Of a stretch of 64,000 nucleotides of DNA, positions 1 to 24,941 are shown piece after piece; position 1 is the first letter of the stretch; each line of letters opens with the position of its first letter. This stretch comes from Deltaproteobacteria bacterium. GTDB lineage: Bacteria; Myxococcota_A; UBA796; SXON01. Both the position numbers and the translations under genes were made by a program. The notes beneath the pieces are model-generated. The model was given only the letters and a program-made list of their open reading frames with translations. It searched no databases and was not told the DNA's origin. The stretch spans positions 64,598-128,597 of the forward strand of contig CANLGL010000002.1 of assembly GCA_947490345.1 (NCBI GenBank), read 5' to 3'.

Positions 1-1417
1 CCAGGCCATCCGCGGTGCCACCGCCACCGAGACCAGAACCGCGACCGCCGAGGCCGCCGGAGCCCATCTGGGTGCCCTTGGCACCGATCAGGCCGCCGAT
101 GCCGCTCTGCATGTCGGCGTTCATGCCCGTGGCGCCCAGCGCGGCGTCGAGCGTGTCGTCGCGGAGCGCACCGAGAACACCTGCGTTCTCCGCGATCTCC
201 TTGTCGAGTTGCTGCTTGTCCATCTGGACCTTTTCGCCCTTGGCTTTGTCCATCTTGGCGTCTTTCTTGCCGACCTTGCCCTCTTCCTTCTTGGCCTTGG
301 CCCCTTCGCCAGCTTCAGGGTTCTTGTCTTCCTTCTTCTTGTCCTCTTCCTTCTGCTTGTCGAGAAGCAGTTGGACCATGTGGTCATCGAGGCCCTGGTC
401 GGTGTGATCCGGCGGCGGGGTGACGAAGTAGAGGAAGGAGAAGGCCGCGGTCAAGAAGCCCATGAAGGCAACGATGCCGACGATGGGCCAATCGATTTGG
501 GACGCTGCCTTGGCCGCCAGTTTGCTGGTGTAGACCATGTGCGCGACGAAGATGGTGTTGCCGAGATCGACAACCAGCCGGGTGTCCTCACCGATTTCGA
601 CGAGGAACAGACCGTCACTCCCGCGCTTGGCGGCACCGTCCGCGAGCAGCTCGGCGAAGGTGCGCCGCGTCTCGCCGATGTCCACAAAGCCGGCCCACTT
701 GTCGCTGATGCGAGCCTGCCACTTGCCACCGGCGCCGGTGAAGAGCGAGAAGTTCGCGTTGGGGAGCATGTCGTTGGGCACGAAGAAGGCGGACTGCCAG
801 CTATCCCCGAAGAAGCTGGCGTTGACATTCGAGCCCAGGGTCACCGGGACGTTGCGGAAGTGGCGGACGTCGACGACGGAATCGCCAAACACCTGCGCCA
901 CTTCGAGGACGCGACCGCGCGACTTGTCAGCGGAGGCGTCGTTGGCCGCGGCGCTGGCGCGCATGACGAACGCCATGACATCTTCAACCGGGGCGTCCTC
1001 GTCCTCGGCAGGGTTGAACACGGACTCACCGGGGCTGGTGTGCGCGTCGTTGGTCTCTTCGCCTACCGCGGCAGACTCGGCGGCCTGGCCTGCGGCGGCG
1101 GCCTGCTCCGGAATCTGGAGCTGGATGCGAATCGAGCCGATGCTGATCGAGTCACCGCTCTTCAGCACGATCGAGCTGACGGCCTCGCCGTTGACCTGCG
1201 TGGTGTTGTCACCTGCGAGGTCGTGCAGTTCGACCCTGCCGTCCTCGTTCACATTGAGGACCGCTTGAAGGTCTTGGAGTCCGGGGTCCTCCACGCGGAG
1301 CATGGCGGCTGGGCCCTTGCCGATGGTCACGCTTTCGGCGCGCAGCTCCTCGCGCCGGAGGAGTTCGTCGCCGTTATAGATGTCGAAGCTGAGAGAAAGT
1401 GCGCTGCTGCCGGCCAT
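1..1417 (-). CDS. FHA-domain single-pass membrane protein, 3' end beyond the window (GltG/NfsG position)
   Basis: This gene is absent from the ORF track because there is no stop inside the window. My own translation from ATG 1417 (GAGG upstream) stays open to base 1. The N-terminus is FHA-like: MAGSSALSLSFDIYNGDELLRREELRAESVTIGKGPAAMLRVEDPGLQDLQAVLNVNEDGRVELHDLAGDNTTQVNGEAV..GDSISIGSIRIQL. A TM helix follows (WPIVGIVAFMGFLTAAFSFLYFV), then Lys/Glu-rich and Gly-rich low complexity. GC3 bias is strong. The + ORF 209..1444 is its antisense shadow. Confidence 0.75.
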   Translation of the reverse strand, partial: MAGSSALSLSFDIYNGDELLRREELRAESVTIGKGPAAMLRVEDPGLQDLQAVLNVNEDGRVELHDLAGDNTTQVNGEAVSSIVLKSGDSISIGSIRIQLQIPEQAAAAGQAAESAAVGEETNDAHTSPGESVFNPAEDEDAPVEDVMAFVMRASAAANDASADKSRGRVLEVAQVFGDSVVDVRHFRNVPVTLGSNVNASFFGDSWQSAFFVPNDMLPNANFSLFTGAGGKWQARISDKWAGFVDIGETRRTFAELLADGAAKRGSDGLFLVEIGEDTRLVVDLGNTIFVAHMVYTSKLAAKAASQIDWPIVGIVAFMGFLTAAFSFLYFVTPPPDHTDQGLDDHMVQLLLDKQKEEDKKKEDKNPEAGEGAKAKKEEGKVGKKDAKMDKAKGEKVQMDKQQLDKEIAENAGVLGALRDDTLDAALGATGMNADMQSGIGGLIGAKGTQMGSGGLGGRGSGLGGGGTADGL

Positions 1418-1474: not shown

Positions 1475-1750
1475 CTACTTGACCTCGTCGACCGACTGTT
1501 CCATTTCCGCGTTGAAGTCGTTGCGGAGCTTGATCAGTGGGTTGAACTGGGCCTTCTTGCGATCGAGAACGAGAGCGCTGGACGGCTTGACCAGTTCACC
1601 GCTCACATCCAACCCTTCGAAGTCGATCTCGGTCTTCGTCTTGTAGGTGACCTTGCGATCTCCGTCGTCCCCGTCCTGGGCGAGTGCCGGGGCGGTGGTG
1701 GCAAGGACCGCGAGGCCCAAGAACAGCGAACGAGTGACGAGCTTCTTCAT
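1475..1750 (-). CDS. small secreted protein (GltF/NfsF position)
   Basis: Track ORF 1475..1825 trimmed to ATG 1750. This gives the signal peptide MKKLVTRSLFLGLAVLATTAPALA followed by QDGDD. The product is 91 aa and charged, with the tail FNPLIKLRNDFNAEMEQSVDEVK. The functional call rests on position only. Confidence 0.65.
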   Translation of the reverse strand: MKKLVTRSLFLGLAVLATTAPALAQDGDDGDRKVTYKTKTEIDFEGLDVSGELVKPSSALVLDRKKAQFNPLIKLRNDFNAEMEQSVDEVK

Positions 1751-1836: not shown

Positions 1837-3321
1837 CTAGCCCGGGGCGGGTGCCGGAGCCGGTGCTTCGGGTGCTGGGGCCGGGGCTTCGGGCGCAGGG
1901 GCCGGAGCCGCTGGCGCCTCAGGCGGCGGCACAACTGCCGAGCATGCGGTCGCAGCCTCGGTGAGCTGGGCGTAGGCGTCGTCGACGAACGTCATCATGT
2001 CGCCGACCATGGCAAGGTCCTTTTCGACGATGACGGGCTTGGCCTGCTCGATGACCATGGGCGCCAGTTCCATGACGTCGGGGCGGGTGGTCATGAGGCA
2101 CTGCTCGTGCTTCTTGATCAGCTCCTCCATTTCCTTGATCTTCTTGTCCATGCCCGAGAGCCGCTCGGAGTCGCGACGGTCGCGCTCTTCCTTCTCCTTG
2201 CGAAGGCGCTCGATCTCCTCTTTGCGCTTCTTCTCCGCCAACTCCAGGGCCTTCACCTCGTCCTTGAGCTTGAATATCTCGTGGCTCGGAGAGTAGGCGC
2301 CCGACATAGCCTGAATGTGGCTGTCCACGATCTGGGCGGCTTTTTCGAACTTCTTGGTGTAGTGCATGTGCAGCATCGCTGCGTTGATCGCCAACGTGCG
2401 GTGCTTGGGGTCGTTCTTCAAGAGCCCGTCGTAGATCTTTTCGGCCGCCTCGAACTCCTTGGTGCCGCGAAGGGAGATCGCGTAGCCCATCTGGATATCG
2501 ACGTTGGCCGGATGGTTCTTCGCAAGCGGCTCGAAGCAGAGCAGGGCCAGGGCGTAGTCGCCGGAGTTCAGCGCCACGTACCCCAGATTGAGATTGGCTT
2601 CGAAGTTGGTGGGGTCCACTTTGAGTGCGGTGCGGAACTGTGCGATTGCCGCGGGTTCGTTCTTCTGAGCGAGAAGCGTGACGCCCATGTTGTTGTAGAT
2701 GCCGGGATCCGCATCGTTGAGCGTCCGCGCCTTTTCGGCGGCGAGCGTGCTCATCGCGTAGTCGCCCTTGGCGTAGTAGGCTCGCGACAGATTTCGGTAG
2801 GCACCGACGTTCTTCGGTTCGCGCGCCAGGACTTCCTGAGCCTCGGCGATGGCCTCGTCATACAGCTTGGCCGCCGTGAGGGCGTCGACGAGGTTGTTGC
2901 GCGCCTCGTTGTCGTCCGGATGGGCGTCGGAGTAGGCCTTGTAGACCTGCGCCGCTTCTGCACCGCGGTCGACCGACTTCAGCACGCCGCCGAGGTTGTA
3001 GACCGCCGCCCGATAGTCGGGCTTGAGATCGACGGCCTTCCGGTAGCAGGATTCGGCCTTGCCGAGGTCACCGACGCGTTCCGCGGCGTAACCGCAGTTG
3101 AACCAGGCCTTGCCGTAGGTCGGGTCGGCCGCCGCTGCGGACTCGAACTTGGCGAGCGCTCCGGCATAGTCGACCTTGCCGCCGCCTTCGCCCAACAGTT
3201 TCAGGCCAGCGGCAAACTCGGTCTTCGGGTCGACCTGCACTTGTTCGGTGGGATCGCCCTTGAGGGGCTTCTTTTCGCCGCAGCCAACGAGGACCAGTGC
3301 GATGAGGAGAGTACGAAACAT
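1837..3321 (-). CDS. TPR lipoprotein (GltE/NfsE-like by size and position)
   Basis: 494 aa with the lipobox MFRTLLIALVLVGC. Repeated TPR-like units are present (AWFNCGYAAERVGDLGKAESCYRKAV, AYRNLSRAYYAKGDYAMS, ANLNLGYVALNSGDYALA). A Glu/Lys coiled-coil and an APAPAPEAP tail follow. Confidence 0.85.
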   Translation of the reverse strand: MFRTLLIALVLVGCGEKKPLKGDPTEQVQVDPKTEFAAGLKLLGEGGGKVDYAGALAKFESAAAADPTYGKAWFNCGYAAERVGDLGKAESCYRKAVDLKPDYRAAVYNLGGVLKSVDRGAEAAQVYKAYSDAHPDDNEARNNLVDALTAAKLYDEAIAEAQEVLAREPKNVGAYRNLSRAYYAKGDYAMSTLAAEKARTLNDADPGIYNNMGVTLLAQKNEPAAIAQFRTALKVDPTNFEANLNLGYVALNSGDYALALLCFEPLAKNHPANVDIQMGYAISLRGTKEFEAAEKIYDGLLKNDPKHRTLAINAAMLHMHYTKKFEKAAQIVDSHIQAMSGAYSPSHEIFKLKDEVKALELAEKKRKEEIERLRKEKEERDRRDSERLSGMDKKIKEMEELIKKHEQCLMTTRPDVMELAPMVIEQAKPVIVEKDLAMVGDMMTFVDDAYAQLTEAATACSAVVPPPEAPAAPAPAPEAPAPAPEAPAPAPAPG

Positions 3322-3324
3322 GGC

Positions 3325-6300
3325 TTAGGGCTCTTTTTCGTAGGAGGCAGTTGTTGCGGAGGGCGCCGCGAAACGCGGGCTCTGGATGGTCTCGAAAAGA
3401 CCAGGGTACTCATCCGGGGCCAGGACGCCCAGCCGTCGGGTCGCCTCGCCGGTGTCGTCGTTGTAGATCGACAGTTCGAACGCCTTTTCCAACGCGCGGC
3501 TGTAGTAGTCGGCCGCCTTCTGGCGCGCCGGGTACGCCTTGTCCTCGAGCGCCATCCGGTACAGTTCCTTCTGGTCCTCAGTGAGGTACTCAGGAATGTA
3601 GGACTTCAGGAGGGTCTCGCCGACGTCCTCCGACGCGTGGCCGAGGCGCACGAGGCTGGCAACGCCCCATTCGCCGGCACCGGTCTTGACGATGTTGAGG
3701 TAAGTCGTGTCCAAAAGCGGCACGGCCTTCACCTTGCCCACCAACTGCTCGCGTACGATTTTGTCCACCTGCTTCTGGGGCAGCTTCTTGTCGCCCGGGC
3801 CGCTGATCTTGAGCGCCATGAAGGCCTTGAACTCGGGCTCAGCGAGGGCGAACATCATCTGGGCGACGGCCTCGGTCGCGACATCGCCCGTGGCGCCGAG
3901 CTTCTTCTGGGCATCGTAGAACGCTACGCCGTCACGCCAGTGCTGGGTGACCTTGGCGGCCATGCCTACCTTATCCATCATCAAGCCGTACCGGAGCCGG
4001 GCAAACATCATTTCGTCGAAGGTGTAGACCACCGGCGGCGGCGCGTTCTTGGCCGGCTTTCCCGACGGGAGCGTGTACACGCCCAGGTAGATCTTGCTGG
4101 CGTCCGCCCACTTTTCATGGGCCTCGTAGGTCTTGGCGAGCTCAAGCTGGACACCGTTGAGGTTCGGCTCCGTCTTGTACGTCGTCATGTACTTCTGGTA
4201 GTTTCCGATTGCCGTTTCCCACTGGCCCATGGAGTTGCGGAAGATCGCTGCCGAGAAGATTGCGTCCTTCGACCCGGGGTGCGCGGTGTCGAGGCTGAAC
4301 AACTTTTCGTACCAGGACGCCGCGTTGCCGAAGTCGGCGACGGATTCGTAGTCGAAGCCGAGGGCGGCGACCTGGTCCTTGTAGTACTTGGACTTGGGGA
4401 ATTTCTCGACCAGCTCGTGACGCACCTTCATCGAATCGCGGGTGCGGCCGGTCTCGCGGTAGTAGACGCTCGCGTTGTTCAGGGCCAAGTCGGCGTTTGT
4501 GGACTTCGGGAACTCCTTGTAGAAGGCCCAGTAGTCCGCGGCACCCTTGGTCTTGTCCTGGGTCTTCTTGAAGCCTTCTTCGATGAGCTTCAACGACGCA
4601 TTCTCATAGACCGTGAACACTTCGCCCTTGAACGCATCCGAGCCGAGACCGCTCTGGTCGTAGAAGGCCTTGGACACTTCCTTGAGGTTGGTCCAGTCGG
4701 AGACGAGGGTAAAGCTGTCGAGGATCAGCTCGGCCGCCTGCTCGGCTTCGCGGGACTTGGGGTCCATGCCGATAACGACGCGGAAGCGGTCGGACGCCTC
4801 TTTGAACTGGTTCTTGTTGTACAGGAGGTACGCCGATTTGTAGATCATCGACCGCACCTTGGTGCCGTCGTCTGGGTACAGTTTGGTGTACTGATCAAGT
4901 GCCGTGAGGAGCTTCTTTTCCCACGCGCTCAGGTCGATCGCGTCCTTGCTCGCGCCCGGGTCGGGCCCAGCGCCGCTGGCCCTCGTCTCTTTCCTGACGA
5001 ACTCATCGGCGGCGAAGATGGCGGACTCGGCGCAGAACTTGCTGTGCTGGCCTTTGGGGTCCATCGCGACGACCTTCATGTACTGGTCGTAGGCGATGTC
5101 GAACTTCTTCAGCTTGTACAACAGCTCGCCGTAGGCGTAGCGCATGTCGTAGCTGTACTTGGAGTCCGGGAACTCATCGAGGTAGGTGGCGTAGGCGCCT
5201 TCTGCCAGTCCACGGACACGCTTCTGCCCTTCGCCAGTGAGCTTGTTGCCCTCGATCTGGTAGTTGGTGGCGACGGTGCGGAGGTTCTTCTCGATGAACT
5301 CACCGGCGCTCTTCACGGCCTCGGTGTTGCTGGCGTTCGCCCGCGCCCACGAGCTGCTCTTCCCGTATTGGGTGCGAAGACGGTCGATCTCCTGGATCGT
5401 GTCCTCCTTCTTGCCCATCTTGGTGAGGCACTGGATGATCTCGTTCTGATAGTCCGGCGCCTGCGCGGCGTCCGGCTTCTCCGTGATCAACCGGCGATAG
5501 GTCTGGATTGCCTGTTCGAATTTTCCCTGTTCGAAGTAGGTACTGGCCAGGCGCTTGAGCATGTCGCGCACAAGCTCGGGCTTGCCGATCTTGCTGAAGT
5601 ACTCGTAGGCTTCGTCGAGGTCGCCCGCGTCGGCGAAGAACCGAACCAGGTCCTTGAGGGCTTCGTCCTGGAGTTGGATGTTGGCACGGCTGGACGAGCC
5701 GGAATTCGACATCTTTGTCGAGTAGTCGACGACGGTCTTCATCGTCTCAATCGACTTGCCGTACTCGCCGACGTTGTACCAGCACCACGCGAGCTTGTAG
5801 TTCGCGAAGGCGTACTTCTCGAAGTCGCGGAAGGACGCCGCGCGCTGATAGGCCATCAGCGCCTTCATCGCTTCGTTCTTGTCGAAGTAGTACTCGCCGA
5901 TCAACAGATACGCGTCGGGGATGAAGCGGCTGTCGGGGTAGGTCTTGACGAGCCGGGTGAGCTCGACGTTGCTTTCGTCGCGGCGTTTGTTCTCGCCGGT
6001 GGCGTTGGCGACTTCGTTGAGCGCCTGGCCCAGGTAGAAGGTCGCCTCATCGGCCCGAACGAACTGGGGGTAGTTGGCGAGGATCTGTCGGTAGAGCTTG
6101 ATGCTCTTCTCCTGCCACCCGGCGGACGGGGCGTGATCCTGGGGAACCTTGTCGGGCTCGCACTTCGGCGTGTTGAAGCACTTGTCGAACTCGGCCTGGT
6201 AGACCTCCATCTCGCCCTGGTAGAGGAAGCGGCCTTCCTCGAAGTACAGATCGGCGAGGCGGAGGAGCATTTCCGCCTTGGTGTCCCCTTCCACCGGGGA

Positions 6301-6540
6301 GTCCTTCAGGAGCTGCTTGAGGCGTTCAATCGACTCTTTGCGAGCGTCGTGCGCGGCCTCTTCGAGCTCGCGCTGCTTGGCATCGCGACTGGCGGTGTCG
6401 GTCGCCTTGAGGACGCGGCGCTCACTCTTTTGGGTGCGGTCCTGCGCCCACGCTTGCGCGGGTACCAGCGCGGCTCCGGCGACAGGAGCCGCCATGCACA
6501 ACAGGACGAGGGCGGAACGAAAGGAAGGGATGCGGAACAT
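3325..6540 (-). CDS. large periplasmic TPR/helical-repeat protein (GltD/NfsD-like by size and position)
   Basis: 1071 aa with a signal peptide ending PAQAWA. TPR-like repeats run throughout. The gap to the downstream gene is 3 nt. The 1602-aa + ORF on the opposite strand is its antisense artefact. Confidence 0.9.
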   Translation of the reverse strand: MFRIPSFRSALVLLCMAAPVAGAALVPAQAWAQDRTQKSERRVLKATDTASRDAKQRELEEAAHDARKESIERLKQLLKDSPVEGDTKAEMLLRLADLYFEEGRFLYQGEMEVYQAEFDKCFNTPKCEPDKVPQDHAPSAGWQEKSIKLYRQILANYPQFVRADEATFYLGQALNEVANATGENKRRDESNVELTRLVKTYPDSRFIPDAYLLIGEYYFDKNEAMKALMAYQRAASFRDFEKYAFANYKLAWCWYNVGEYGKSIETMKTVVDYSTKMSNSGSSSRANIQLQDEALKDLVRFFADAGDLDEAYEYFSKIGKPELVRDMLKRLASTYFEQGKFEQAIQTYRRLITEKPDAAQAPDYQNEIIQCLTKMGKKEDTIQEIDRLRTQYGKSSSWARANASNTEAVKSAGEFIEKNLRTVATNYQIEGNKLTGEGQKRVRGLAEGAYATYLDEFPDSKYSYDMRYAYGELLYKLKKFDIAYDQYMKVVAMDPKGQHSKFCAESAIFAADEFVRKETRASGAGPDPGASKDAIDLSAWEKKLLTALDQYTKLYPDDGTKVRSMIYKSAYLLYNKNQFKEASDRFRVVIGMDPKSREAEQAAELILDSFTLVSDWTNLKEVSKAFYDQSGLGSDAFKGEVFTVYENASLKLIEEGFKKTQDKTKGAADYWAFYKEFPKSTNADLALNNASVYYRETGRTRDSMKVRHELVEKFPKSKYYKDQVAALGFDYESVADFGNAASWYEKLFSLDTAHPGSKDAIFSAAIFRNSMGQWETAIGNYQKYMTTYKTEPNLNGVQLELAKTYEAHEKWADASKIYLGVYTLPSGKPAKNAPPPVVYTFDEMMFARLRYGLMMDKVGMAAKVTQHWRDGVAFYDAQKKLGATGDVATEAVAQMMFALAEPEFKAFMALKISGPGDKKLPQKQVDKIVREQLVGKVKAVPLLDTTYLNIVKTGAGEWGVASLVRLGHASEDVGETLLKSYIPEYLTEDQKELYRMALEDKAYPARQKAADYYSRALEKAFELSIYNDDTGEATRRLGVLAPDEYPGLFETIQSPRFAAPSATTASYEKEP

Positions 6541-6608: not shown

Positions 6609-8441
6609 CTACCGGCACTTGGACTGCTCGGTGTAGTGATACCACCCCAGCTCGTCCTTCCAGAACTCACCATTGAACGGCCAGTAAATGAACTTCGGCG
6701 AGGTCGCGAAGTCGGTGTCCTGGCCCTTGGACGTGTCTTGGAGGTCGATGCTCTGGATGCGGTACATCGCGTCGCCGCGTCGCGCGTCGACGACTTCGAA
6801 CTGAATGATGTCGGCCTGCCCGATGAGGTCGCCCAGCTGCTTCGCGAGGCCGACCATATTCTTGAGCAGGGCGCGACCGGCGCGCTTCTTCAGGGTCTCG
6901 CGGGCGTCCGCGATGACTTTCATCATCTGCTCACCGACGGCGCCCTTCCACTGCGACTTCTGCGACTGAATGATCTGCTCTTCGGTGTCGAGGAGCTCCA
7001 AGTGACGAACCAGACCCGAGAGCTCCTGGTCGCGGAGGAGCCGCGTGAACATCGGCTTCGGCAGGACCGTCTCGCCCTTGCCCTCGAAGTACCGCTCGTA
7101 GGCCTGGTCGGCCAGGGCGCGACCTTCTTCCGACGAATAGGTCTTGAGGGTGTCTTTGAGCTCGGTGTGGACGGGCATGTAGCGAGACTTGAAGTCGCCG
7201 AGCGTGCGGTCCACGTCGTCGTACTGGCACATGTTGAAGTAGGTGAGCGCCCGCAGGACGGTGGCCTCGGGCAGGTACTCGGAGTCCGAGTAGTACGGGC
7301 TTTCCACCGTCAGGATCTCGCCGAGGGTGTAGTTGAGGTCGCTGAGCAGGAACGCCGCCCACGCCATCTCGAACTGCGCCTGCGGCCAGTACACGCTGTC
7401 CCGGGGCACCTGGAGGTACATTTCCTTGGCCTGGGCGTGCTCGCCGATGCCATAGTAGATGCGGGCGATATTCAGCACCGAGAGCTCACGAAGGCGGCCG
7501 AGCGCCTCGATCTCCTGCAGGGTCGGCGCTTCGGGCTTGGCCTTGGCCACCTCGCCGAAGGACCGCACCGCGGACTTCAGCTTCAACGTCTTGTTGTCGA
7601 TGACGCCTAGCAGGTAGGTTGCGCGCAGGTACACGTCAGACTTTTCTCCGACCTGCTGCAGCATCTTCTTGGCGTCAGAGAGCTTGTCGGCGTCGTAGAG
7701 TTGGACCCCCTTGAGGTAGTACAACTGGCTCTTCGCGCCCTTGGGGTAGTCCTCGGGCTCAATCTTCGCCACGACCTTGTTCAGGTCGGTCGCATCACCG
7801 GTGAGATGGTAGATCTGGACGAGCTTCGGCAGCGCGTACTTGAAGAACGGACTCCCGGTGCCCCGCTTGAGCACCTCGATGAAGTAGTACTGCGCCGAGT
7901 GGTACATCTTGAGGTCGTACAGCGACATCCCCAGGTAGTAGAGGATCTTTTCCTCCTTGTCGGGGAAGGTGCCGTCCTTGAGCAAATCGTGTAGGGCCAG
8001 GGACGCCGACAGGGGCTTCTTGGCCTTGTACTGGCGGATCGCATCGTCGAGCTTCTGCGGGTCCTTGCCGTCTTCTTCGCTGTCTTTGTCGGTGAGCTCT
8101 TTGCGCTTGCCCTTGCCGGCGCCGACCTCTTCCTCTTCGTCAAAGCCCTTGCGCGCCGCTTCCTTCTTGGAGACAGGCCTTTCCTCTTCAGCCGGGGCGG
8201 CCTCTTCCTTCGGCGCCGAGTCGCGCGCGATCTGCTTCTTGACGGCCCCGATCACGGCATCCGGGGCGCCTTCGTTGGTCAGGCAGCGCACGAAGTCGGC
8301 CGTGAACGACTCGCCCGATTCCTCGACGGTCTGGACGACGATCGCTTCCGGTACGTTGACGTTGACCATGTTCATGACCTCGTCGCACGTGAGCGCGTGC
8401 GCTGGGGTCGCGAGAGCGAAGAGGAGCAAGCTGGTCATCAC
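6609..8441 (-). CDS. TPR protein (GltC/NfsC-like by size and position)
   Basis: 610 aa with the signal peptide MMTSLLLFALATPAHA. An acidic/Lys-rich linker is followed by TPR-like repeats and the C-terminal motif FIYWPFNGEFWKDELGWYHY. The start overlaps the upstream stop by 4 nt. Confidence 0.85.
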   Translation of the reverse strand: MMTSLLLFALATPAHALTCDEVMNMVNVNVPEAIVVQTVEESGESFTADFVRCLTNEGAPDAVIGAVKKQIARDSAPKEEAAPAEEERPVSKKEAARKGFDEEEEVGAGKGKRKELTDKDSEEDGKDPQKLDDAIRQYKAKKPLSASLALHDLLKDGTFPDKEEKILYYLGMSLYDLKMYHSAQYYFIEVLKRGTGSPFFKYALPKLVQIYHLTGDATDLNKVVAKIEPEDYPKGAKSQLYYLKGVQLYDADKLSDAKKMLQQVGEKSDVYLRATYLLGVIDNKTLKLKSAVRSFGEVAKAKPEAPTLQEIEALGRLRELSVLNIARIYYGIGEHAQAKEMYLQVPRDSVYWPQAQFEMAWAAFLLSDLNYTLGEILTVESPYYSDSEYLPEATVLRALTYFNMCQYDDVDRTLGDFKSRYMPVHTELKDTLKTYSSEEGRALADQAYERYFEGKGETVLPKPMFTRLLRDQELSGLVRHLELLDTEEQIIQSQKSQWKGAVGEQMMKVIADARETLKKRAGRALLKNMVGLAKQLGDLIGQADIIQFEVVDARRGDAMYRIQSIDLQDTSKGQDTDFATSPKFIYWPFNGEFWKDELGWYHYTEQSKCR

Positions 8442-9298
8442 TTCATCCCTGGGAAGAAGAAGGAAACGTTCGCCTGGACGATCAGGTTGTTCTTCATCTC
8501 GAGCGTCGTGGACTTGACGACCTCGATGTAGGTCATGGACTTGACCTCGAAGCGCACGCCTACCGATTCACTGAAGGCCACGCGGGCGCCGCCGCCCATG
8601 ATGGTGGTCGGATGGACCTGGTACTGGGTGCGATGCGCGGGGCCGTCCGGTGGCTCGTCATCGGCCTGCAGCGCGATCAAGTCGTCTTCGGTGGCGGTGA
8701 TGCCAAGGCCGACGGTGCCGTAGATGTCGAAGGCGATGATGTCACGGCCAGAAGCGACCTTCCCGTAGATCGGCGCGAACTGCAGGCCGACGTTTCCGTG
8801 CGCCGTGAGCCGCGAAATGTCCGGGGACACCGAGTTCTTGGTAAGTAGCTGGCAAGACAGGGGCTTCCAGTCCGGGTCGTCGCAACCGCCCTGGCCCAGG
8901 ATCGGGGCGTACGCGCCCTGGAGCTCGATCGCGAAGATCTCCGTGGCGTGGTAGTCGAAGACCGCGCCGAGAATGTACCGATTCAGGAAGGGGTCGTTCG
9001 CGACAAAACCCACGGAAGGTCCGATCTCATAGCGATGGAGCTTTACGAAGGTCTTGGGTTGAATCGTCTTGATGACCTTGCGGCGGCGTTTGGGTTCCGG
9101 CTTTTTTTCGGTCGTCTTGCCGGACTTCACCGCATCCTTCTGCGCCTTCACGGAGTCTTCGTCTTCGTCATCTTCGTCCTGGGCCACAGCGAGGACGTCG
9201 AACCCGGCCAGGGGGTCCGGAGCGTCCTCGGCGAGAGCCGGGGCGGCGAGCGCGAGGGCGGGGGCGGCCAGTGCGAGGAAGATAGCAATGCTCAGCAT
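8438..9298 (-). CDS. outer-membrane beta-barrel protein (GltB/NfsB-like)
   Basis: 286 aa with the signal peptide MLSIAIFLALAAPALALAAPALA. An acidic low-complexity linker is followed by an amphipathic beta-strand pattern ending NVSFFFPGMK. It is paralogous to the next gene. Confidence 0.8.
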   Translation of the reverse strand: MLSIAIFLALAAPALALAAPALAEDAPDPLAGFDVLAVAQDEDDEDEDSVKAQKDAVKSGKTTEKKPEPKRRRKVIKTIQPKTFVKLHRYEIGPSVGFVANDPFLNRYILGAVFDYHATEIFAIELQGAYAPILGQGGCDDPDWKPLSCQLLTKNSVSPDISRLTAHGNVGLQFAPIYGKVASGRDIIAFDIYGTVGLGITATEDDLIALQADDEPPDGPAHRTQYQVHPTTIMGGGARVAFSESVGVRFEVKSMTYIEVVKSTTLEMKNNLIVQANVSFFFPGMK

Positions 9299-9314: not shown

Positions 9315-10202
9315 TCAGAAGTTGAAAAGGCGGGGCTTCATCTTCGGCACGAAGATGGAGATTCCCCCGGTGGTGATGAAGACGGACTGGATCTCGTCGT
9401 TGAGAACCTGCTTCTGTCCGGTCGTGGGGTCGATGTCGCCGACGATATAGTCGGCCTCCGGCCCAATGAAAACCAAGGTGCGTGCGTCAAGCTTCAGAGC
9501 GATCGTCGGACTGATGAAGAAGTTGACCCCCACGCCCAGGTTCAGCGCCGGGCTGAACTGCTGCTGCGGGTTCGGCTCGAGCGACACCGGATCCGTCGTC
9601 TCCCCATTCCGGTAGGCATCGCTGACCACGGCGATGTCCTTGGACACCGCCGCCAGACCCACGCCGGCCGTGCCGTACATGTCAAAGTTGACGACCCCTT
9701 CACCGAGCAGATTGATCTTCCCGTACACCGGCGACCACCGCGCCGAGAAGGCGGCGGCGATGCTGAGGCGGTCGATCGGCTGCTGAAAAGTAGTGCCCGG
9801 ATCGCTCTGATAGGCGATGTCGAGCAAGGTGCGGGTCAGGTTCTTGACGCCGGAGGTGCCCGTGTTCGGCGAGTAGAGAACCGCGGCCTCGACAGACAGC
9901 TTTTCGTCGAAGTGGTAGGCGAGGTACGCCCCGCCCACGTAGCTGTCCGCGAAGGAGTTGTTCGGCACGTAGCCGAGGGACGGCGCAATCTCGAAGCGAT
10001 TTCCCTTGAGGAAGAAGCGATTCCGGATCAGGTCGATCGGCTGCTTCTTTCCCTTGAATTCTTCGAGCGCGACCACGGCGCTGTTCTTGTCTTTGGCAAA
10101 CGCCGCGGTCGGGCTGGCAAGGCCCAGGGCGAGCACAGCCAGCATCGACAAGCGACACAGCGCACGTGTTGAGGTTTCGATAAATCGTCCGGCAGGCTTC
10201 AT
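9315..10202 (-). CDS. outer-membrane beta-barrel protein (GltA/NfsA-like)
   Basis: 295 aa with a signal peptide ending PTAAFA. It shares motifs with 8438..9298: NRFEIAPSLGYVPNNSF versus HRYEIGPSVGFVANDPF, and WSPVYGKI..FDMYGTAGVG versus FAPIYGKV..FDIYGTVGLG. Confidence 0.8.
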   Translation of the reverse strand: MKPAGRFIETSTRALCRLSMLAVLALGLASPTAAFAKDKNSAVVALEEFKGKKQPIDLIRNRFFLKGNRFEIAPSLGYVPNNSFADSYVGGAYLAYHFDEKLSVEAAVLYSPNTGTSGVKNLTRTLLDIAYQSDPGTTFQQPIDRLSIAAAFSARWSPVYGKINLLGEGVVNFDMYGTAGVGLAAVSKDIAVVSDAYRNGETTDPVSLEPNPQQQFSPALNLGVGVNFFISPTIALKLDARTLVFIGPEADYIVGDIDPTTGQKQVLNDEIQSVFITTGGISIFVPKMKPRLFNF

Positions 10203-10301
10203 TCCAGCTCTCCGCTAGCCACAATTCCCAGGGTGGGGTCCGAGGGCGGCGCACCATAGCACGGAACCCACGGTTAGGCTGTCCGGACAATCGGGTCCGC
10301 C

Positions 10302-10709
10302 ATGGGGTTCTGGCTTTCGATCGCAGTCGCCGCTGGCACGGGTGATGTCGTGCTGCTTGGCCCGTCCGCGCCGCTCGCGTCGACCGACGCGGTCAGCCTT
10401 ACGCTGACCACGCCAGGGGCGAGCTTCATCGACGGGTGCTCCCCGGTTGAGTTGGAGAAAAAGGATGGAGAGCGGTGGATATCTGTCCCCCGTCGGGCCT
10501 GCACTCAACGGCTGCCGGCCAGCCGGGTCGAGGGGAGCCTCGTGGTCTCGGTGCCGCCCCCCGGCCCCGGGGAGTACCGCGCTGTGGTGACCTGGGCGAC
10601 GGGCTGTGCCGAAGGCGTGGCCCTCGCTCACGCGGCGTGCAGCGTGGTGGCTGCCGTTCGCTCCGAGCCGTTTACTTGCCGGGCGGAGGCGGTCAAGCCG
10701 GCGCCTTGA
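10302..10709 (+). CDS. hypothetical small Cys-containing protein, opposite strand to the cluster
   Basis: 135-aa ORF with a high GC3 codon pattern (by eye more than 80 percent), a protein-like composition and 5 Cys. There is an in-frame stop 9 codons upstream of the ATG. The competing minus-strand ORFs in this gap are Arg/Gly/Pro junk. Its 3' end overlaps the 10693..11562 gene by 17 nt. Confidence 0.45.
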   Translation: MGFWLSIAVAAGTGDVVLLGPSAPLASTDAVSLTLTTPGASFIDGCSPVELEKKDGERWISVPRRACTQRLPASRVEGSLVVSVPPPGPGEYRAVVTWATGCAEGVALAHAACSVVAAVRSEPFTCRAEAVKPAP

Positions 10710-11562
10710 AGCGAACGCGCAGCTCGGACCAGCCCATCCCGCCTCGCCGATCGCGAACCACGACCCAGAGGCTCGCGGTGTCGTGGACTGGCTCTTCGGG
10801 GCTGAAGTAGACGGTGGTGTCCACCGGGAAGATCGAGTTGGACTGGCTGAACGAGCCTTCCTCCAGGTACCAGGACAGGTAGGGCTCCTCGGTCAGGGAT
10901 TTGGTGACGCCGGCGCTGGTGACAAAGGTGTAGGGCTCCACGGAGCCCGAGGTGAGCTCCGCGCGCAGGTCGTAGGCCTGCCCCCGGTCGAGAAGGACCT
11001 CGGCGCCGACTTCGATGGCGAGCCCATCCACGCGCCAAGCCAAGACGGCCGGATTGTGGTTCGGTGTCGCTGCGAGCGAGACGGGAACGCGTTTATAGGC
11101 GAGCTCCACGTCGTCTTCGTCGAGCGTCCCGCCCTCCGCCACTTCCGGGATCGCAGCCAGGTAGGTCATCGCGAATGAGCCCTCCAAGCGCTCCGCCTCG
11201 GTCAGGGAGTCGAGGTAGTCGGCCGGGACGACCCAGGCCGGGGGAAGCGCGGGTAGGAAACCGATGAAGCCGGCGGCTGCAAGGTCCTCCGGGTCCGCCT
11301 CCTCGAGCGATCCGCCTTCAAAAAGCGCAGGATCCACCGAGCAGCCGAAGTCGTCGGAGGCGCCCCCGTCGCAGACGAACCAAGCGCTCCCCGCGAGCGG
11401 ATCGACCGGGGACACGATCAGGGCGTTGAAGGTGACCAGATCTCCTGGCCGCGGCTCGGCTGGTTCGGTGGCGACGGCCAGGACGCGGAGGCGGTCAATC
11501 TGCCAAGACTGACTCAGATCTTCGGTGTCACACGCCACGAGTTGGAGAATCATCGAGATCAA
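10693..11562 (-). CDS. hypothetical protein, possible lipoprotein, partner of the TonB-dependent barrel
   Basis: 289 aa. The hydrophobic N-terminus is very short and has a lipobox-like LVAC (MISMILQLVACDTED). The protein is acidic and I recognise no family. Its start overlaps the stop of the barrel gene by 4 nt. Confidence 0.75.
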   Translation of the reverse strand: MISMILQLVACDTEDLSQSWQIDRLRVLAVATEPAEPRPGDLVTFNALIVSPVDPLAGSAWFVCDGGASDDFGCSVDPALFEGGSLEEADPEDLAAAGFIGFLPALPPAWVVPADYLDSLTEAERLEGSFAMTYLAAIPEVAEGGTLDEDDVELAYKRVPVSLAATPNHNPAVLAWRVDGLAIEVGAEVLLDRGQAYDLRAELTSGSVEPYTFVTSAGVTKSLTEEPYLSWYLEEGSFSQSNSIFPVDTTVYFSPEEPVHDTASLWVVVRDRRGGMGWSELRVRFKAPA

Positions 11563-14182
11563 AGCGGCACCTTCAGCTCGAAGCCGGGGCTGGGGATGAT
11601 CGGAAGCCCCTTGAAGTAGGTCTTCTCGGTGTAGTCGTAATTGTATTGCTCGAACTCTGGATTTTCTCCATGGAGTGCGTTGATCACGTCCAGATAGACC
11701 AGCAGCTGCCAGGATTTGAAGGTGAACAGCTTGTCAATTCTGGCCGACACCGCCCAATATGGCGGAAGGCGTTCGCTGTTGGTGTCCCCCGACGGGAATG
11801 CCACGTAAAAGTCCTGATCGACGTCGTAGACTCCGAGTGCGTACGGGGTGGTCGGGTTGCCGGTGGTGTACTGCACCTTGGCGCCGAGCGAGAGGTCGTA
11901 GGGCAGCCGATAGCCGGCCACGGCGGTGAGGATGTGCGTCTGGTCGAAGTCGAAGAGGTACCAGTCTTCGTCTGGGTAATCTTGACGTTCGCTGCGCGAA
12001 AGGGTGTAGCTGACCCATCCGAAGAGCCTTCCGATGGGCTCGTGGCGGGCAATGACCTCCACTCCGTACGCGCGGCCGTCGCCCGAGTTGACGAAGTAGC
12101 TGTCGTCGAGGCTGCCGAAGGACCGGTTGCTGACGATCAAGTCGTTGAGGTCCTTGTAGAAGCCCTCCACCTCGAGCTTGATGGCCGGTCCGATCGCCTG
12201 CTCAAAACCGAGTGAGCTTGCCCAGGCCTCCTCCGCGCCAACGAGGGCGGGATCGTCGTCCGGGCGGTATTGCTGGAAGGGCTGGGGCGGCTGATGGTAC
12301 AGGCCAGTCGAGCCCTTGATGACGCTGGTTTTCCCGACGGCCCAACGCGCGGAGAAGCGGGGGTCCAACGCGAGGACCTCGTTCTCATCAGGGATGATCA
12401 CGTACATCAATCGAACCCCCGCATTGAGGGTCAACTGGTCCGTGTCCTGAAGCGGTTTCCAGCGAACGTTGAGCCAGGGGTCCGGCCCGTACCCGGTGGC
12501 GGTCCCCTTGAGTTGGTACGGCTCGCGTTCGGCAAGCGGGTCGATCTCCGCGAAGCTCGCGGGATTGAACGGCAGTTCGATGATGAAGTCGGCCCAACCG
12601 GCGATCAAGTCGAGCCCCGCGGTCACCGAGAGGTGATCGGCGTGTTCGTAGGCGGCCTCGGCCCGCAGCTCGGCGGTGTACCGCGTCTGGATCAGGTGGA
12701 AGGTGTCGCCGACGTCGAGTGCGGCCTCGTCCATGCCGAAGCTCGGCGCGATGCGAGCCGACCAGTGTTGGCCCCAGGCCCGGTCCCAGGTGCCGCCGAA
12801 GCGATACGTGCTATATTGCGTGCCGATGTCGCCCTGGGTGTCAGGGTCGGTGCCCTGCGCGTAGCCGTCCGGTGTGTGGATGAAGAGCGTGTCGCGGAAG
12901 CCGAAGGCCAGGAGCGAGAACTTATCTGGGTTGTCCCCCTGGTATTGATACTTCGCCTGGAAGTCCCACCACTGGGGCGAAACCGTGAATCCATCGTCAG
13001 CGAGAAAGGCGGGGAGGATGAGGTCGATGTACGACGCGCGGGCGGCGACGCCGACGCCGTGTTGGTGGTCCGTTCCGAAGCTGCCCAGCCACACGCCGCC
13101 GCTGTCCAATGCGTCTGTGGACCAGCGCAGCTCGTGTCGTTCGGGAAACTGGGTGCGGGTCGTGGCGTCGACGGAGCCGCCGGTGCTGCGGCCGTATTGC
13201 GGCCCGTACCCCCCTGGCAGATAGTCCACGCTCTTGACGAGGTCGGGATTGATGATCGATTCGAAGCCGCCAAGGTGGTAGATGTACGGGATGTACATGC
13301 CGTCGATGTAGACGCGGCTGTCTTCCGGATTGGCCCCGCGGATGATGAGCACGCCGGTCCCGAGGGGCGCCCGCGCCGCTCCCGGAAGGTTCTGCACGAC
13401 GCGAATGGGGTCTCCGAACGTACCCGGAATACGACGAATCTCGTCCATTGAGATGGTGCGTCGGGTGACGTCGGCCGTTTCACGGCGATAGGTGCCGATG
13501 ATTCCCGGATCGGCGTAGGATTGGTTCCGGACCCACAGTCGGGCGCTGGTGACCTCGCCCGCCACGACGTCGACGGGCTTCTGCAGCGTGTCGTAACCGG
13601 GGTGCAATGCCCTGACCGTGTGGCTTCCAGGAGGGAGGCCCCTGAACTGCCACCGACCCTGCGCGTCGGTCTCACTTTCGAGGTTCAGGGCGTCGATGCG
13701 GACGAGGAAGTCGGGGAGCGGCCGCCGGGTCCCCATCTCGACCACGGTGCCTTGCAGGTTGACGGGGAGCTCGGCAGGGTCGCCGACCGGCTGCGCCTGT
13801 TCGTGGGCACCGGCCTTAGCTGCCGCGTCGAGCACGAAACCATACGCGAACTCGATCGCGACGGGCACGGGGCCGGTGGCGTCCTCTGCCGGGCTGAAAC
13901 GGAACTGCCGGGCCGCAGCTACCGCAGCTTCGTCAAAGCCGTTGCCCGCCGGCACCAACACCTCGACCAGGGTGACCGTCCCGGCCGCGTCGATCTCGAT
14001 GAGCAGGTTGACCGTGCCTTCAAGCTTCAGGGCGGCCGCATCCGGTGGGTATGGCGCCTGTACGAAATCGAGGAGGGCGGGGTCCTTGGTCAGCGGCGGG
14101 AGCTCCTCGGCCGGGACCACGGGCGCTTCTTCGGCGCGTGCCAGCGGGCTTCCGACGAGCAGCGCGGTCAGAAGCGCAGAGA

Positions 14183-14186
<4 letters not shown>
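11559..14186 (-). CDS. TonB-dependent receptor-like OM barrel with N-terminal TonB_C and CarboxypepD_reg-like domains (Oar-like)
   Basis: Track ORF 11559..14768 trimmed to ATG 14186, which forms an ATGA overlap with the tonB stop. This gives the signal peptide MISALLTALLVGSPLARA. The TonB_C signature is APYPPDAAALKLEGTVNLLIEIDAAGTVTLVEVLVPAGNGFDEAAVAAARQFRFSP. A carboxypeptidase-regulatory-like segment follows (LQGTVVEMGTRRPL..GRWQFRGLPPGSHTVRALHPGY). The plug region reads ISMDEIRRIPGTFGDPIRVVQNLPGA..IRGANPEDSRVYIDG. A long beta-barrel ends GFELKVPL. Confidence 0.85.
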
Positions 14187-14916
<730 letters not shown>

Positions 14917-14920
<4 letters not shown>

Positions 14921-15339
14921 GGCGCGGCGAACTCGACAGGCTCGATATTGATGGCGAAGCGGGCGACGCCTTCCTGCTTCACAAGGTCGATGAGGTGAGT
15001 CACGTCGCCATGCCGGGCGTCCCGATCGCCGGCCACCAGGCAGACGACCTGGTCATTGGCGATGCGGGCGGCACGTACGGCCGCGCGCAGTTCCGGCTCG
15101 GTGACCGGGTTGCCGTCGAGGAGCAGTTGGCCGGCGGCCGTCACGGTGATCGCCAACGAAGACGGGGCGGTCGCGTCACCCGTCGCCGCGTCGGGCAGGT
15201 TGACCTTGATCGATGGGGAGACGATGTACGAGGTCGTCACCATGAAGATGATGAGCACGACCAGGATGATGTCGACCAACGGCAAGATGTTGATCTCGGT
15301 CATCCCCTCATCGTCGCCGCTGAGTCGCGCGCCGGCCAT
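14917..15339 (-). CDS. ExbD/TolR family protein
   Basis: 140 aa with the family motif EINILPLVDIILVVLIIFMVTT. Confidence 0.9.
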
Positions 15340-15340
15340 C

Positions 15341-16012
15341 CTACGTCCCCTCGGCGCGCATCCGTGCCACCACGAGGTCAGCCAGGCTCTCGATGCGCGA
15401 GAGCTGTGAGCGGACCATGCGGGTCAGGAAGTTGTACAGCACGACCGCGGGGATGGCGACCATCAGCGCGACGGCGGTCGACACCAGCGCCTCCGAGATC
15501 GCGCTCATGACCATCTTTCCGGAGTCTGTCGACTCGAGCGACAGCTCGTGGAAGGCCTGGATGATGCCCAGAACGGTGCCGAAAAGCCCGATGAAGGCCG
15601 CGGTGGAGGCGACCGTGCCGACGACCAGCAGGCCCCGCTCAAGGCGGAGGCGCTCGAACAGAATGGTCCCCTGCATGGCGTGTTGCGATGCCGCGGACAC
15701 CCGTGCGCGAAGTCCGGCCAGAAGGACGCGGGACTCGACCCCCTGCTGCTGGTTCAAGGACGCCTCCAGCTCATCGCGAGGGCCGCCGGAGAGGTAGCGG
15801 CCCACCGCCGCCTCGAAGGGGCCGGCGGGGGTGCGGTTCACCACAAAGTACACCACGCGCTCGATCCCGATCGCCACGCAGAGGAACGACAAGATCACGA
15901 GCAACCAGAGCACCCACCACGCACCCAGGAGCGCGAAGTTCAGCATCGCCTTTGCCAGCATCACGACCCCGTCGGCGGCGCCCGCTAATTCGTTGCCTCG
16001 CTCCCGGGACAC
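15341..16012 (-). CDS. MotA/TolQ/ExbB proton-channel protein
   Basis: 223 aa with three TM segments and the family motif [17 protein letters not shown]. The true start may be ATG 15961 (MLAKAML), which would remove the overlap with the upstream ORF. Confidence 0.9.
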   Translation of the reverse strand: MSRERGNELAGAADGVVMLAKAMLNFALLGAWWVLWLLVILSFLCVAIGIERVVYFVVNRTPAGPFEAAVGRYLSGGPRDELEASLNQQQGVESRVLLAGLRARVSAASQHAMQGTILFERLRLERGLLVVGTVASTAAFIGLFGTVLGIIQAFHELSLESTDSGKMVMSAISEALVSTAVALMVAIPAVVLYNFLTRMVRSQLSRIESLADLVVARMRAEGT

Positions 16013-18338: not shown

Positions 18339-19351
18339 AGATCGCCCTGGTTCATCGCCGGTATTCCACCAATGGCGGCACCGAGCGCTACCTCGTCGGC
18401 TTCTCCCGATTCCTGGTGCGTGCCGGCCACGACGTGAGCGTGCTGTGCAACGAGGTCGCCGCAGATCTGCGGGGCGAGCCGGAAATCCGCTTCGTGCACC
18501 TGCCGATGTGGCGACCGGCCAAGGCGCTGAGCCTCGCGTGGTCGGTTCGACAGGCGCTCGCTCGGGAACCATTTGACGCCGTTTTGGGTCTCGGGCGGCA
18601 CACCGGACATAGCGTCTACCGGGCGGGGGGCGGCTCGCACCGGGACTATCTGCGCCGGCGCGCCTACTCCTGGCGTCGGGGGCTATCTTTGGGAGACTGG
18701 CTGGACGTGGCGCTGGATTGGGCTGCAGTGCGTGGCGCGCGGGTCTGCATCGCGAACAGCGAGCTCGGCGCGCGCGGTCTGCGGGAGGACTACGGCGCCA
18801 CGAGGGTTGAGGTCGTGTACAACGGGGTTGACCTGGAACGGTTCCGACCGGACGCTGACGTGCGCGCCAAGGTGCGTCAGGAGACAGGCGTCGTCGGGCC
18901 AGTCGCGGTCTTCGTCGGCAACGACTTCGTGCGCAAGGGGCTGGATGTCGCCTTGGCGGCGTTGCCGCCGGCCTGGACGCTGTGGGTTGTGGGCTCCGGT
19001 CGGCCCCCGCCCGCGCCGGCCCGGGTTCGCTTCTTCGGCGCCCAAGCCAATCCGGAACGCTTCTTGCAAGCAGCGGACGTGCTGGTGCTGCCCACTCACT
19101 ACGATCCCTTCGCGAATGTGTGCCTCGAGGCATTGGCCTGCGGCGTGCCCGTGTTGACCACGCGCGCCAACGGCGCCAGCGAGGTGCTTCCGGAACCGTG
19201 GATGATCGCTGACGACGTCGTTTCCTTCCGCGCTGGCTTTGCCCACGTCAACTCGTCGGTGGGCGCCGCTTGTCGGGCGACTGCGGAGTCCTTTCCACAA
19301 TCCCGCAGCTTTCAGCGCGCGCTGGAGCTGCTCGTCGAGGCCTCACGATGA
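18335..19351 (+). CDS. family 4 (GT-B) glycosyltransferase, WaaG/RfaG-like
   Basis: Starts VKIALVHRRYSTNGGTERYL, with the C-terminal motif VLVLPTHYDPFANVCLEALACGVPVLTT. GTG 18335 overlaps the GT2 stop (GTGA). The track start 18308 is less likely. Confidence 0.85.
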   Translation: MKIALVHRRYSTNGGTERYLVGFSRFLVRAGHDVSVLCNEVAADLRGEPEIRFVHLPMWRPAKALSLAWSVRQALAREPFDAVLGLGRHTGHSVYRAGGGSHRDYLRRRAYSWRRGLSLGDWLDVALDWAAVRGARVCIANSELGARGLREDYGATRVEVVYNGVDLERFRPDADVRAKVRQETGVVGPVAVFVGNDFVRKGLDVALAALPPAWTLWVVGSGRPPPAPARVRFFGAQANPERFLQAADVLVLPTHYDPFANVCLEALACGVPVLTTRANGASEVLPEPWMIADDVVSFRAGFAHVNSSVGAACRATAESFPQSRSFQRALELLVEASR

Positions 19352-22300: not shown

Positions 22301-22605
22301 TTCCGGACGGGCTCGTGCGCGTGCCGAGTCCCGACGGGCTGGGCTTTGATGGCGAGCCGCTCACCGCGCTTCGTCCGCCCGGAGACCCGCCCGAGCGGCT
22401 GATGGTGGTCCCCGGTGGGGAGGCGCCGGTGTCGCGTCAGCCCGCTGAGGCGCCGCCATCCGGCGCCCTGGCCCTGCCCAACGACACCGAGTTCGGCCCG
22501 CCCGAACCGGACGAAGGCGTCGATCCGGAAGAGGCACCTCCGCCGGCTGAGGAGCCCCCTTCAGCGCCCACCGACGACGACGCCAGCCTTGTTCTGCCGG
22601 AATAG
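19348..22605 (+). CDS. class A penicillin-binding protein (transglycosylase/transpeptidase)
   Basis: ATG 19348 forms an ATGA overlap with the upstream stop. The TM anchor is MKKLLLRLLQLTALLTVVGGVVG. GT51 motifs are ASEDGSFWEHPGID and GGSTLTQQTAKN. Transpeptidase motifs are STWKP (SxxK), SEN (SxN) and KTGTT. The C-terminal tail is Pro-rich. Confidence 0.92.
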   Translation: MKKLLLRLLQLTALLTVVGGVVGTWAYRKYVLNDPGPAFERAAILEIIAQESPVYYRDGVTPMGVFFDQEHRTYVPFERLPEDWVHAIVASEDGSFWEHPGIDPKHILRAVLQNMKAGSVVAGGSTLTQQTAKNLFYRPDRSFRAKAVELGDTLRLEAHFSKKDILEFYANQFHVSANGRGIGIAARYFFDKTPEELETKECAFIAGMVKAPSRYNPFIGQTEARREEARTAAEKRTAYVLRRMAETGEISEARRAELEATPLAFRRGSFRYDRSVVLDEVQRRLEEPKFIELFERAGIDNPSTAGLRIVTTIDKHAEAAATYGLWHHLSELGPQLERPALDALLLPPATTAEASPGQALAPLSFHAARVEAAAADALTLDLGGRPCTVDADGIRRVAKAFGAKAEALAAALVTGRFVLASVREDGASCDLEYRPGLQGAVLVLEDGQVRAMVGGNDNRHLNRATSARRQFGSTWKPLLFLAASQLGWLPTDALDNRRNVFPFRDVWYFPRADHSADAFLSMTATGARSENLASVWLLFHLVDRLDDAQLGRLAAQVDLLPREGEAPEAFAVRMRDEAVIRSSPERFAELAFTRARTDVLATLGSSRHPEDALAVRSLLYGQGVAAERARVQRTATSAERASRLVALENNLVGLEETAAACLAGPLAALSWDPVSQALACGRAPAGFVPLPPEALALATASRVEQALAFEAQDDLLVDGRVHLGTLRALRVAEDLRTAELVGRDAYDADVLVLHPDWRVLVGVRSFIRLCHDIGVEAELPENLTLTLGAADTSLQEMASAYQALLVGARYRFSGEGFVEGSVTGMRSTFALPESEEATALVQEIRDAGGNVLFRMQSRTEPVADPRAGAMVGDILRNVVLHGTGRRASGAAGTEGRPLTGKTGTTNNYRNAAFIGFAPIQNGGLPVWGAAFTVAAYVGNDDNTPMRRGSLRVQGANGALPVWLETVRLMGARGLLGTGTAGEYTIPDGLVRVPSPDGLGFDGEPLTALRPPGDPPERLMVVPGGEAPVSRQPAEAPPSGALALPNDTEFGPPEPDEGVDPEEAPPPAEEPPSAPTDDDASLVLPE

Positions 22606-24901: not shown

Positions 24902-24941
24902 TGGAGCGTCGGAGCGTGCTAAGTTGAGCGAGGGAGCTTCC

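Follow-up and report, generated by a model that had tools for sequence, protein, structure and literature searches.

A putative TonB-energised transport cassette of Myxococcota with a TonB C-terminal domain on its outer-membrane barrel

What does a TonB domain grip when it is borne by the receptor? The question is raised by a 64,000-nucleotide (nt) stretch of GC-rich DNA (0.60-0.71) from an uncultured myxobacterium, hereafter the window, in which five genes lie tightly joined on the minus strand: exbB, exbD, tonB, a gene for an 875-amino-acid (aa) outer-membrane barrel and a gene for a 289-aa lipoprotein. The barrel protein, encoded beside a TonB, itself starts with a TonB C-terminal domain (TonB_C), and next to this cassette lies a gene cluster that resembles the Glt and Nfs systems of Myxococcus xanthus. 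A first, sequence-only reading of the window had suggested that the extra domain docks on a TonB-box-like strand of another protein, possibly one of the Glt/Nfs-like ones, or on peptidoglycan, and that barrel and lipoprotein recall the logic of SusC/SusD. Here, we describe the gene order, domains, fold, conservation and distribution of the cassette and conclude that it is most likely a dedicated Ton-energised transporter of the Oar subclass, and that the target bound by the TonB_C of the barrel is most likely a beta-strand of a partner. Coupling of the cassette to the Glt/Nfs-like cluster is possible.

The cassette and its TonB_C-bearing barrel

Neighbouring genes among the five either overlap by 4 nt or lie 1 nt apart, and their coordinates (Table 1) and junctions are as the sequence-only reading had them. 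Read from the sequence, exbB and exbD are spaced by 1 nt, and the exbD/tonB and tonB/barrel junctions are ATGA overlaps. The stop of the barrel gene overlaps the lipoprotein start by 4 nt if a TTG start is used; public gene calls start the lipoprotein at an ATG three codons downstream, which gives 286 aa. A promoter and terminator scan found nothing above chance.

The cassette TonB has an N-terminal transmembrane helix that contains an S-x3-H motif (SLVVH), as well as 14 consecutive prolines and a TonB_C. Such a helix and proline run mark a TonB that couples to ExbBD (knowledge of the SHLS motif is cited in PMC12204202). Since the window holds a separate Tol cluster, the ExbBD pair of the cassette is not the Tol motor. 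Along its full length, the cassette ExbB shares 37-40% identity with ExbB proteins from related cassettes that have no Glt genes nearby, but it matches the TolQ of the window only partially; both ExbB and ExbD are closer to their counterparts in the Glt-less cassettes than to TolQ and TolR of the window itself. A gene for a TPR protein (61243-62244, minus strand) lies upstream of the Tol cluster.

The barrel protein is encoded by a single open reading frame (ORF) and consists, in order, of a signal peptide, TonB_C, a CarboxypepD_reg domain, a TonB-box-like linker, a Plug and a barrel of ~22 strands. Its N-terminal segment scores as TonB_C with 47.9 bits against a Pfam cut-off of 24.6, and is also matched by NCBIfam TIGR01352 (50.6 bits, cut-off 27.1, E 1.8e-13). 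Searches with the domain alone and with a profile built from 60 homologues both hit TonB C-terminal domains of solved structure in the PDB; against the Escherichia coli TonB chains the domain gives an E of 6e-5. VQAPYP of the barrel domain is aligned to NQPQYP of E. coli, with the equivalents of Q160 and of the YP motif retained (the QxxYP signature). The domain is 35% identical to the C-terminal domain of the adjacent cassette TonB, and AlphaFold2 predicts it with a pLDDT (predicted local distance difference test) score of 86-94. The start at 14186 belongs to one continuous ORF and the architecture is repeated in 573 homologues of 850-900 aa, which excludes that the TonB_C is a separate small gene.

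The retained motif also bears on whether the domain captures a strand at all. TonB_C could instead only tether the barrel to peptidoglycan or keep it at a fixed position in the envelope, by analogy with AMIN and other transporter N-terminal domains that have been proposed as localisation modules (PMC2572700). We regard this as highly improbable, given that the domain keeps a motif linked to TonB-box contact and that the window shows no sign of peptidoglycan binding.

Behind TonB_C, CarboxypepD_reg scores 47.2 bits (cut-off 32.3; pLDDT about 90) and the Plug, the most conserved stretch of the barrel family, 36.1 bits (cut-off 23.9). Together with the barrel seen by AlphaFold2 and Foldseek, this bears out the domain order that had been proposed from the translation. 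Residues 227-236 are a candidate TonB box: they are disordered in the AlphaFold2 model (pLDDT <50) and conserved, with a clade consensus of VGVYRK and an invariant Y233, and distant members read ETVVRG, which is canonical-like. The model as a whole (pLDDT 79, predicted template-modelling score 0.70) has ~22 long strands, is confident for TonB_C and CarboxypepD_reg and moderate for the plug. Foldseek against the PDB matches it to TonB-dependent transporters alone, namely FptA, YncD, PqqU, FrpB, FhuA and BtuB, with E of ~1e-23 to 1e-20 and a target template-modelling (TM) score of ~0.7. The domains, the tight gene coupling and a transporter fold with a plug and a disordered linker at the place expected for a TonB box argue for a dedicated Ton system.

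The N-terminal region of the barrel also matches the NCBIfam model of MxcH, the myxochelin siderophore receptor (NF038079), of which the first ~100 positions are TonB_C-like. Barrel residues 36-133 match model positions 2-99 (E 4.6e-25), and the cassette TonB matches positions 10-75. An MxcH identity was rejected, as the whole barrel reaches 87.8 bits against a cut-off of 925 and the N-terminal region alone is matched. The TonB_C-like start of the model indicates that a TonB_C-receptor fusion is not unique to this barrel family or to Glt contexts.

Distribution of the cassette and its partner lipoprotein

A scan of one genome per species returned 189 relatives, and we examined the best 80 loci, all of them from metagenome-assembled genomes (MAGs) of uncultured Myxococcota, some with wrong taxon labels. 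The lipoprotein adjoins the barrel in 76/79 of these loci, ExbB and ExbD are upstream in 51/54, and Glt-like barrels are downstream in 61/64 informative loci, to as low as 46% identity. In 12 loci barrel and lipoprotein have changed places, with the adjacency kept. The barrel family is large: in an exhaustive profile search the best 150 cluster representatives all scored >550 bits, with the TonB_C region covered in most. One MAG carries a second barrel-lipoprotein copy without exbBD or Glt neighbours (L040, same MAG as L032), so the family can be paralogous within a genome.

More distant Myxococcota members, with 32-37% barrel identity, have the cassette without Glt genes nearby. The genes run exbB-exbD-tonB-lipoprotein-barrel in L085 and exbB-exbD-tonB-barrel-lipoprotein in L087 and L088, followed in L087 by a MacAB/TolC-type set; L081 has a partial cassette (barrel-lipoprotein-exbB) and L086 the barrel-lipoprotein pair alone. 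Lipoprotein homology was confirmed in these Glt-less members. Three cultured species, Melittangium boletus, Archangium gephyra and Archangium violaceum, encode the pair and have no exbBD or glt genes close to it. The pairing noticed in the sequence-only reading is therefore real and deeply conserved, seen in the best loci as well as in distant and cultured members. Whether the fusion always neighbours Glt/Nfs-like genes, which that reading had left to a survey, has a divided answer: it nearly always does so within the clade of the window, but members without Glt genes nearby exist in more distant Myxococcota. In M. boletus (L091), two 67-aa genes (13755-13958 and 14312-14515) with weak matches to lanthipeptide leader domains directly follow the pair.

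Members of the barrel family have 0, 1 or 2 copies of TonB_C. Two tandem copies are present in P0250, P0251, P0262 and locus L094 (123-3209), and none in P0293, P0310, P0336 and P0385; P0264 has a second CarboxypepD_reg domain. The lipoprotein partner is found with both zero-copy and double-copy members. Because the lipoprotein is kept across contexts, the invariant core is barrel plus lipoprotein, to which ExbB-ExbD-TonB is a frequent addition; TonB_C is a variable accessory and the Glt adjacency is clade-specific.

A copy number of 0, 1 or 2 resembles a tunable accessory, and the domain might act on the transporter itself, through its own TonB box or TonB. The similarity to the adjacent TonB domain is consistent with duplication of the 3' end of the upstream gene, the strand-binding signature is retained, and the domain is present in transporters from unrelated settings, the MxcH model among them. 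However, the AlphaFold2 monomer leaves the TonB-box region disordered and off the N-terminal domain, and the literature searched yielded no experimental precedent. We hold such self-action to be decidedly doubtful.

The lipoprotein has no Pfam or NCBIfam match, and a functional name is attached to 0/376 of its homologues. The homologues conserve the lipobox cysteine (Cys11), followed by a conserved LSxSWQIDRLRVLAV segment. Invariant residues include Cys64 and Cys74, an NHNP motif at the domain boundary or linker and a C-terminal RDRRGG. AlphaFold2 models two immunoglobulin (Ig)-like beta-sandwich domains (pLDDT 91.7), for which Foldseek returns generic Ig-like tandems at low TM-scores and, weakly, Bacteroides SGBP-B. 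A SusD-like lipoprotein was rejected on this fold, tandem beta-sandwiches instead of the helical (TPR-like) fold of SusD, and on the missing Pfam match, and with it falls the suggestion of a SusD-type partner.

ExbB, ExbD, TonB, barrel and lipoprotein recur together without Glt genes (L085, L087, L088 and partly L081), which argues for a Ton cassette that stands by itself. With somewhat better than even confidence, we read it as a self-contained cassette for TonB-energised transport across the outer membrane, of a kind typical of Myxococcota, in which the TonB_C of the barrel is a strand-docking module. ExbB-ExbD would be the proton-driven motor, to which the 245-aa TonB would couple via its S-x3-H helix. 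The TonB C-terminal domain would pull the TonB-box-like strand (residues ~227-236) of the plugged 875-aa barrel, which would make the barrel TonB-dependent, and the tandem beta-sandwich lipoprotein would be its obligate partner. The extra TonB_C may form a periplasmic docking module upstream of the TonB box, at the position of the signalling domain in FecA-type receptors, and would most likely grip a beta-strand of another protein through strand addition. In the clade of the window, the cassette is fixed beside the gltB/A-C-D-E-F-G-H (Nfs-like) cluster.

Several observations weigh against this transporter reading. The barrel model PF00593 gives no score on the 875-aa protein, although it scores in homologues; the plug is short and its model confidence moderate; and the candidate TonB box in the clade of the window departs from the canonical motif. 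The members without TonB_C show that barrel and lipoprotein can do without the domain in their core function. The genes that neighbour the cassette vary between lineages and give no substrate clue, and a stand-alone transporter leaves the near-invariant Glt adjacency of the clade (61/64 loci) unexplained.

The Glt/Nfs-like neighbours and the rest of the window

The neighbours form an eight-gene gltB/A-C-D-E-F-G-H cluster, laid out like nfsA-H (Table 1). The Glt/Nfs-like assignment made earlier is supported by this order and by scores above cut-off for TIGR04565 (twice), CglE/GltH and AgmX/PglI. The 286-aa GltA/B-type barrel is a paralogue of the 295-aa one (24% identity). The GltC, GltE, GltF and GltG models give full-length matches, all below their equivalog cut-offs, and hence the cluster is related, but not orthologous, to the M. 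xanthus systems. No GltD model matched the 1071-aa TPR protein, which is called GltD-like from its size and position. The C-terminus of the GltE-like protein is a proline-alanine repeat tail (1837-1910, minus strand).

Full-length on the source contig (L089), the GltG-like protein matches NF033760 gliding_GltG with 317 bits, an FHA domain with E 7e-10 and the AgmX/PglI C-terminal domain NF033768 with 107 bits against a cut-off of 40. The region accordingly contains three TonB-type C-terminal domains, the number that had been surmised, in the cassette TonB, the barrel and the GltG-like edge gene. Beyond the edge gene, the contig encodes a CglE/GltH-like protein (96 against a cut-off of 70), an Ig-repeat protein and then rplC. 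The Ig-repeat protein (L089 14634-15734; 366 aa, choice-of-anchor D, ASH/HYDIN type) may supply the Glt-like cluster with a surface component.

Between cassette and cluster lies a conserved ORF of 135 aa on the plus strand, with five cysteines and no family match; its tblastn hits, at 37-81% identity, come from the 20 closest loci alone. A minus-strand ORF at 10215-10631 (138 aa) was considered as a GltK-like gene and rejected as spurious, given its atypical composition and the conserved gene on the plus strand.

Table 1 Features of the window and of the barrel protein (positions are those of the window)
Feature	Position	Strand	Size or residues	Details
exbB	15341..16012	-	223 aa	GTG start; PF01618 MotA_ExbB, E 6.3e-29
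exbD	14917..15339	-	140 aa	PF02472 ExbD, E 1.7e-26
tonB	14183..14920	-	245 aa	PF03544 TonB_C at residues 170-234, E 3.6e-11
Barrel gene	11559..14186	-	875 aa	Outer-membrane barrel
Barrel TonB_C	13836..14057	-	residues 44-117	Folded unit ~30-120; PF03544, E 1.9e-12
Barrel CarboxypepD_reg	13542..13757	-	residues 144-215	Oar/SusC-type N-terminal extension; PF13620, E 2.8e-12
Candidate TonB box	13479..13508	-	residues 227-236	IIGTYRRETA, just upstream of Plug
Barrel Plug	13176..13472	-	residues 239-337	PF07715, E 9.8e-09
Partner lipoprotein gene	10693..11562	-	289 aa	From TTG (286 aa from ATG)
Conserved ORF	10302..10709	+	135 aa	Between cassette and Glt-like cluster; called on source contig
GltA/B-type outer-membrane beta-barrel	9315..10202	-	295 aa	TIGR04565 OMP_myx_plus, 92.7 bits, cut-off 60
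GltA/B-type outer-membrane beta-barrel	8438..9298	-	286 aa	TIGR04565, 80.8 bits
GltC-like TPR protein	6609..8441	-	610 aa	NF033756 gliding_GltC, 240 bits full length, below cut-off 450
GltD-like large TPR protein	3325..6540	-	1071 aa	TPR families; between GltC-like and GltE-like genes
GltE-like TPR lipoprotein	1837..3321	-	494 aa	NF033758 gliding_GltE, 133 bits, below cut-off 225
GltF/CglF-like small protein	1475..1750	-	91 aa	NF033764 gliding_CglF, 56-57 bits, below cut-off 90
GltG-like protein	2..1417	-	609 aa on source contig	Cut by window edge; FHA, transmembrane helix, TonB C-terminal-domain-like tail
PF11617 protein	24834-26891	+	685 aa	
PF11617 protein	51018-53669	-	883 aa	
PF11617 protein	53759-57001	-	1080 aa	
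tolB	58038-59360	-		Separate Tol cluster
Gene in TolA position	59351-60079	-	242 aa	No family match
tolR	60080-60520	-		Separate Tol cluster
tolQ	60511-61233	-		Separate Tol cluster

Could the cassette be an integral part of this envelope machine, with ExbB-ExbD as its motor in place of AglRQS? The docking site for the TonB_C of the barrel would then be the GltD-like TPR scaffold or else the N-terminal ends of the GltA/B-like barrels, as modelled for the TonB C-terminal-domain-like domains of GltG and GltJ, and the barrel may also be a port that exposes a surface protein. Adjacency and co-orientation in the 61/64 loci survive the swap of barrel and lipoprotein and are better kept than those of a flanking penicillin-binding protein (PBP) gene (syntenic in 32/45 loci) or of DUF2817 (17/45), and in 35/50 loci without the 135-aa ORF just ~110-350 nt lie between the cassette and the first Glt-like gene. 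However, because the unrelated PBP gene is also syntenic, part of the adjacency signal is inherited gene order, and in the window the two units are ~490 nt apart, with a convergent ORF between them. No AglRQS (TolQ/TolR-type) motor was found in the Glt-like cluster or within 10 kb beyond it on the source contig, which would suit ExbB-ExbD in its place, but M. xanthus has its Agl motor genes at a distance from glt and nfs, so a motor missing nearby proves little.

Published work gives such docking some precedent: the TonB C-terminal-domain-like domains of GltG and GltJ bind GltD in a published model (PMC11761067), and a possible TonB box has been reported in GltB (PMC9946355). Across 62-70 loci, however, the two GltA/B-like barrels show weak conservation at their N-termini and no strongly conserved TonB-box-like motif there. 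Intact cassettes without Glt genes in other lineages and the TonB_C-like N-terminus of the MxcH model count further against an integral part, and they weaken the sequence-only suggestion of docking on Glt proteins. A fusion shared with a siderophore receptor is what that reading itself had named as a ground for refuting it. Overall, we find membership in the machine fairly unlikely. A bolder form, which we consider quite improbable, would make the TonB_C of the barrel an outer-membrane-anchored 'reverse TonB' that grips a strand of the Glt/Nfs-like scaffold, and the cassette the motor-plus-outer-membrane end of the machine in this clade. If true, it would be a new way of linking an outer-membrane barrel to a trans-envelope force transducer.

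The PBP is of class A (1111 aa; 19270-22605, plus strand) and has a very long insert between its transglycosylase (residues 94-270) and a weak transpeptidase match (886-947). A MopE-type putative metal-binding motif, PF11617, is present in 2, 6 and 9 copies in the 685-, 883- and 1080-aa proteins, respectively.

Comparison with known systems

In the literature searched, which did not extend to subscription journals, no paper was found that describes a TonB_C-transporter fusion. In a published survey, the N-terminal architectures of transporters fall into five types, and TonB_C is part of none of them (PMC6434023); the survey required PF00593 and PF07715, of which PF00593 does not score on the barrel of the window. 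In public records, the proteins of the barrel family go by 'TonB family protein' or by 'TonB-dependent receptor'. A large family that bears 0, 1 or 2 TonB_C domains beside its own TonB poses the question of what a receptor-borne TonB domain grips, and culturable hosts (Archangium, Melittangium) make this question testable. The clade-locked adjacency to Glt/Nfs-like genes might be relevant to the powering of such machines and to their attachment to the outer membrane.

Glt/Nfs machines also use TonB-type C-terminal domains as periplasmic connectors (GltG, GltJ), but there the domain is on inner-membrane proteins, whereas in the window it is on an outer-membrane barrel of a family that extends beyond Glt contexts. 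MxcH shares the N-terminal domain, and unlike it the cassette has no siderophore genes beside it. Transducers of the FecA, FpvA and FoxA type likewise have an additional domain in the periplasm, N-terminal to the TonB box, with which they contact another protein; theirs is an STN domain of a different fold that binds an anti-sigma factor, and no sigma or anti-sigma genes are present at the cassette. As in SusC/SusD and TbpA/TbpB, the gene of a TonB-dependent barrel lies beside that of an obligate lipoprotein, which in the window is a 30-kDa tandem Ig-like beta-sandwich in contrast to SusD.

The remaining comparison is with Oar of M. xanthus, which secretes the protease PopC. Both Oar and the barrel of the window are myxobacterial, have a CarboxypepD_reg extension ahead of TonB box, plug and barrel, and have dedicated exbB, exbD and tonB genes beside the barrel gene (PMC6434023, PMC11658791). 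By its CarboxypepD_reg extension, the barrel of the window would fall in the Oar subclass. The Oar likeness seen in the sequence-only reading holds for this extension; the Oar-type barrel model PF25183 is matched faintly, in homologues, and the barrel of the window differs from Oar by its extra leading TonB_C and its obligate lipoprotein partner.

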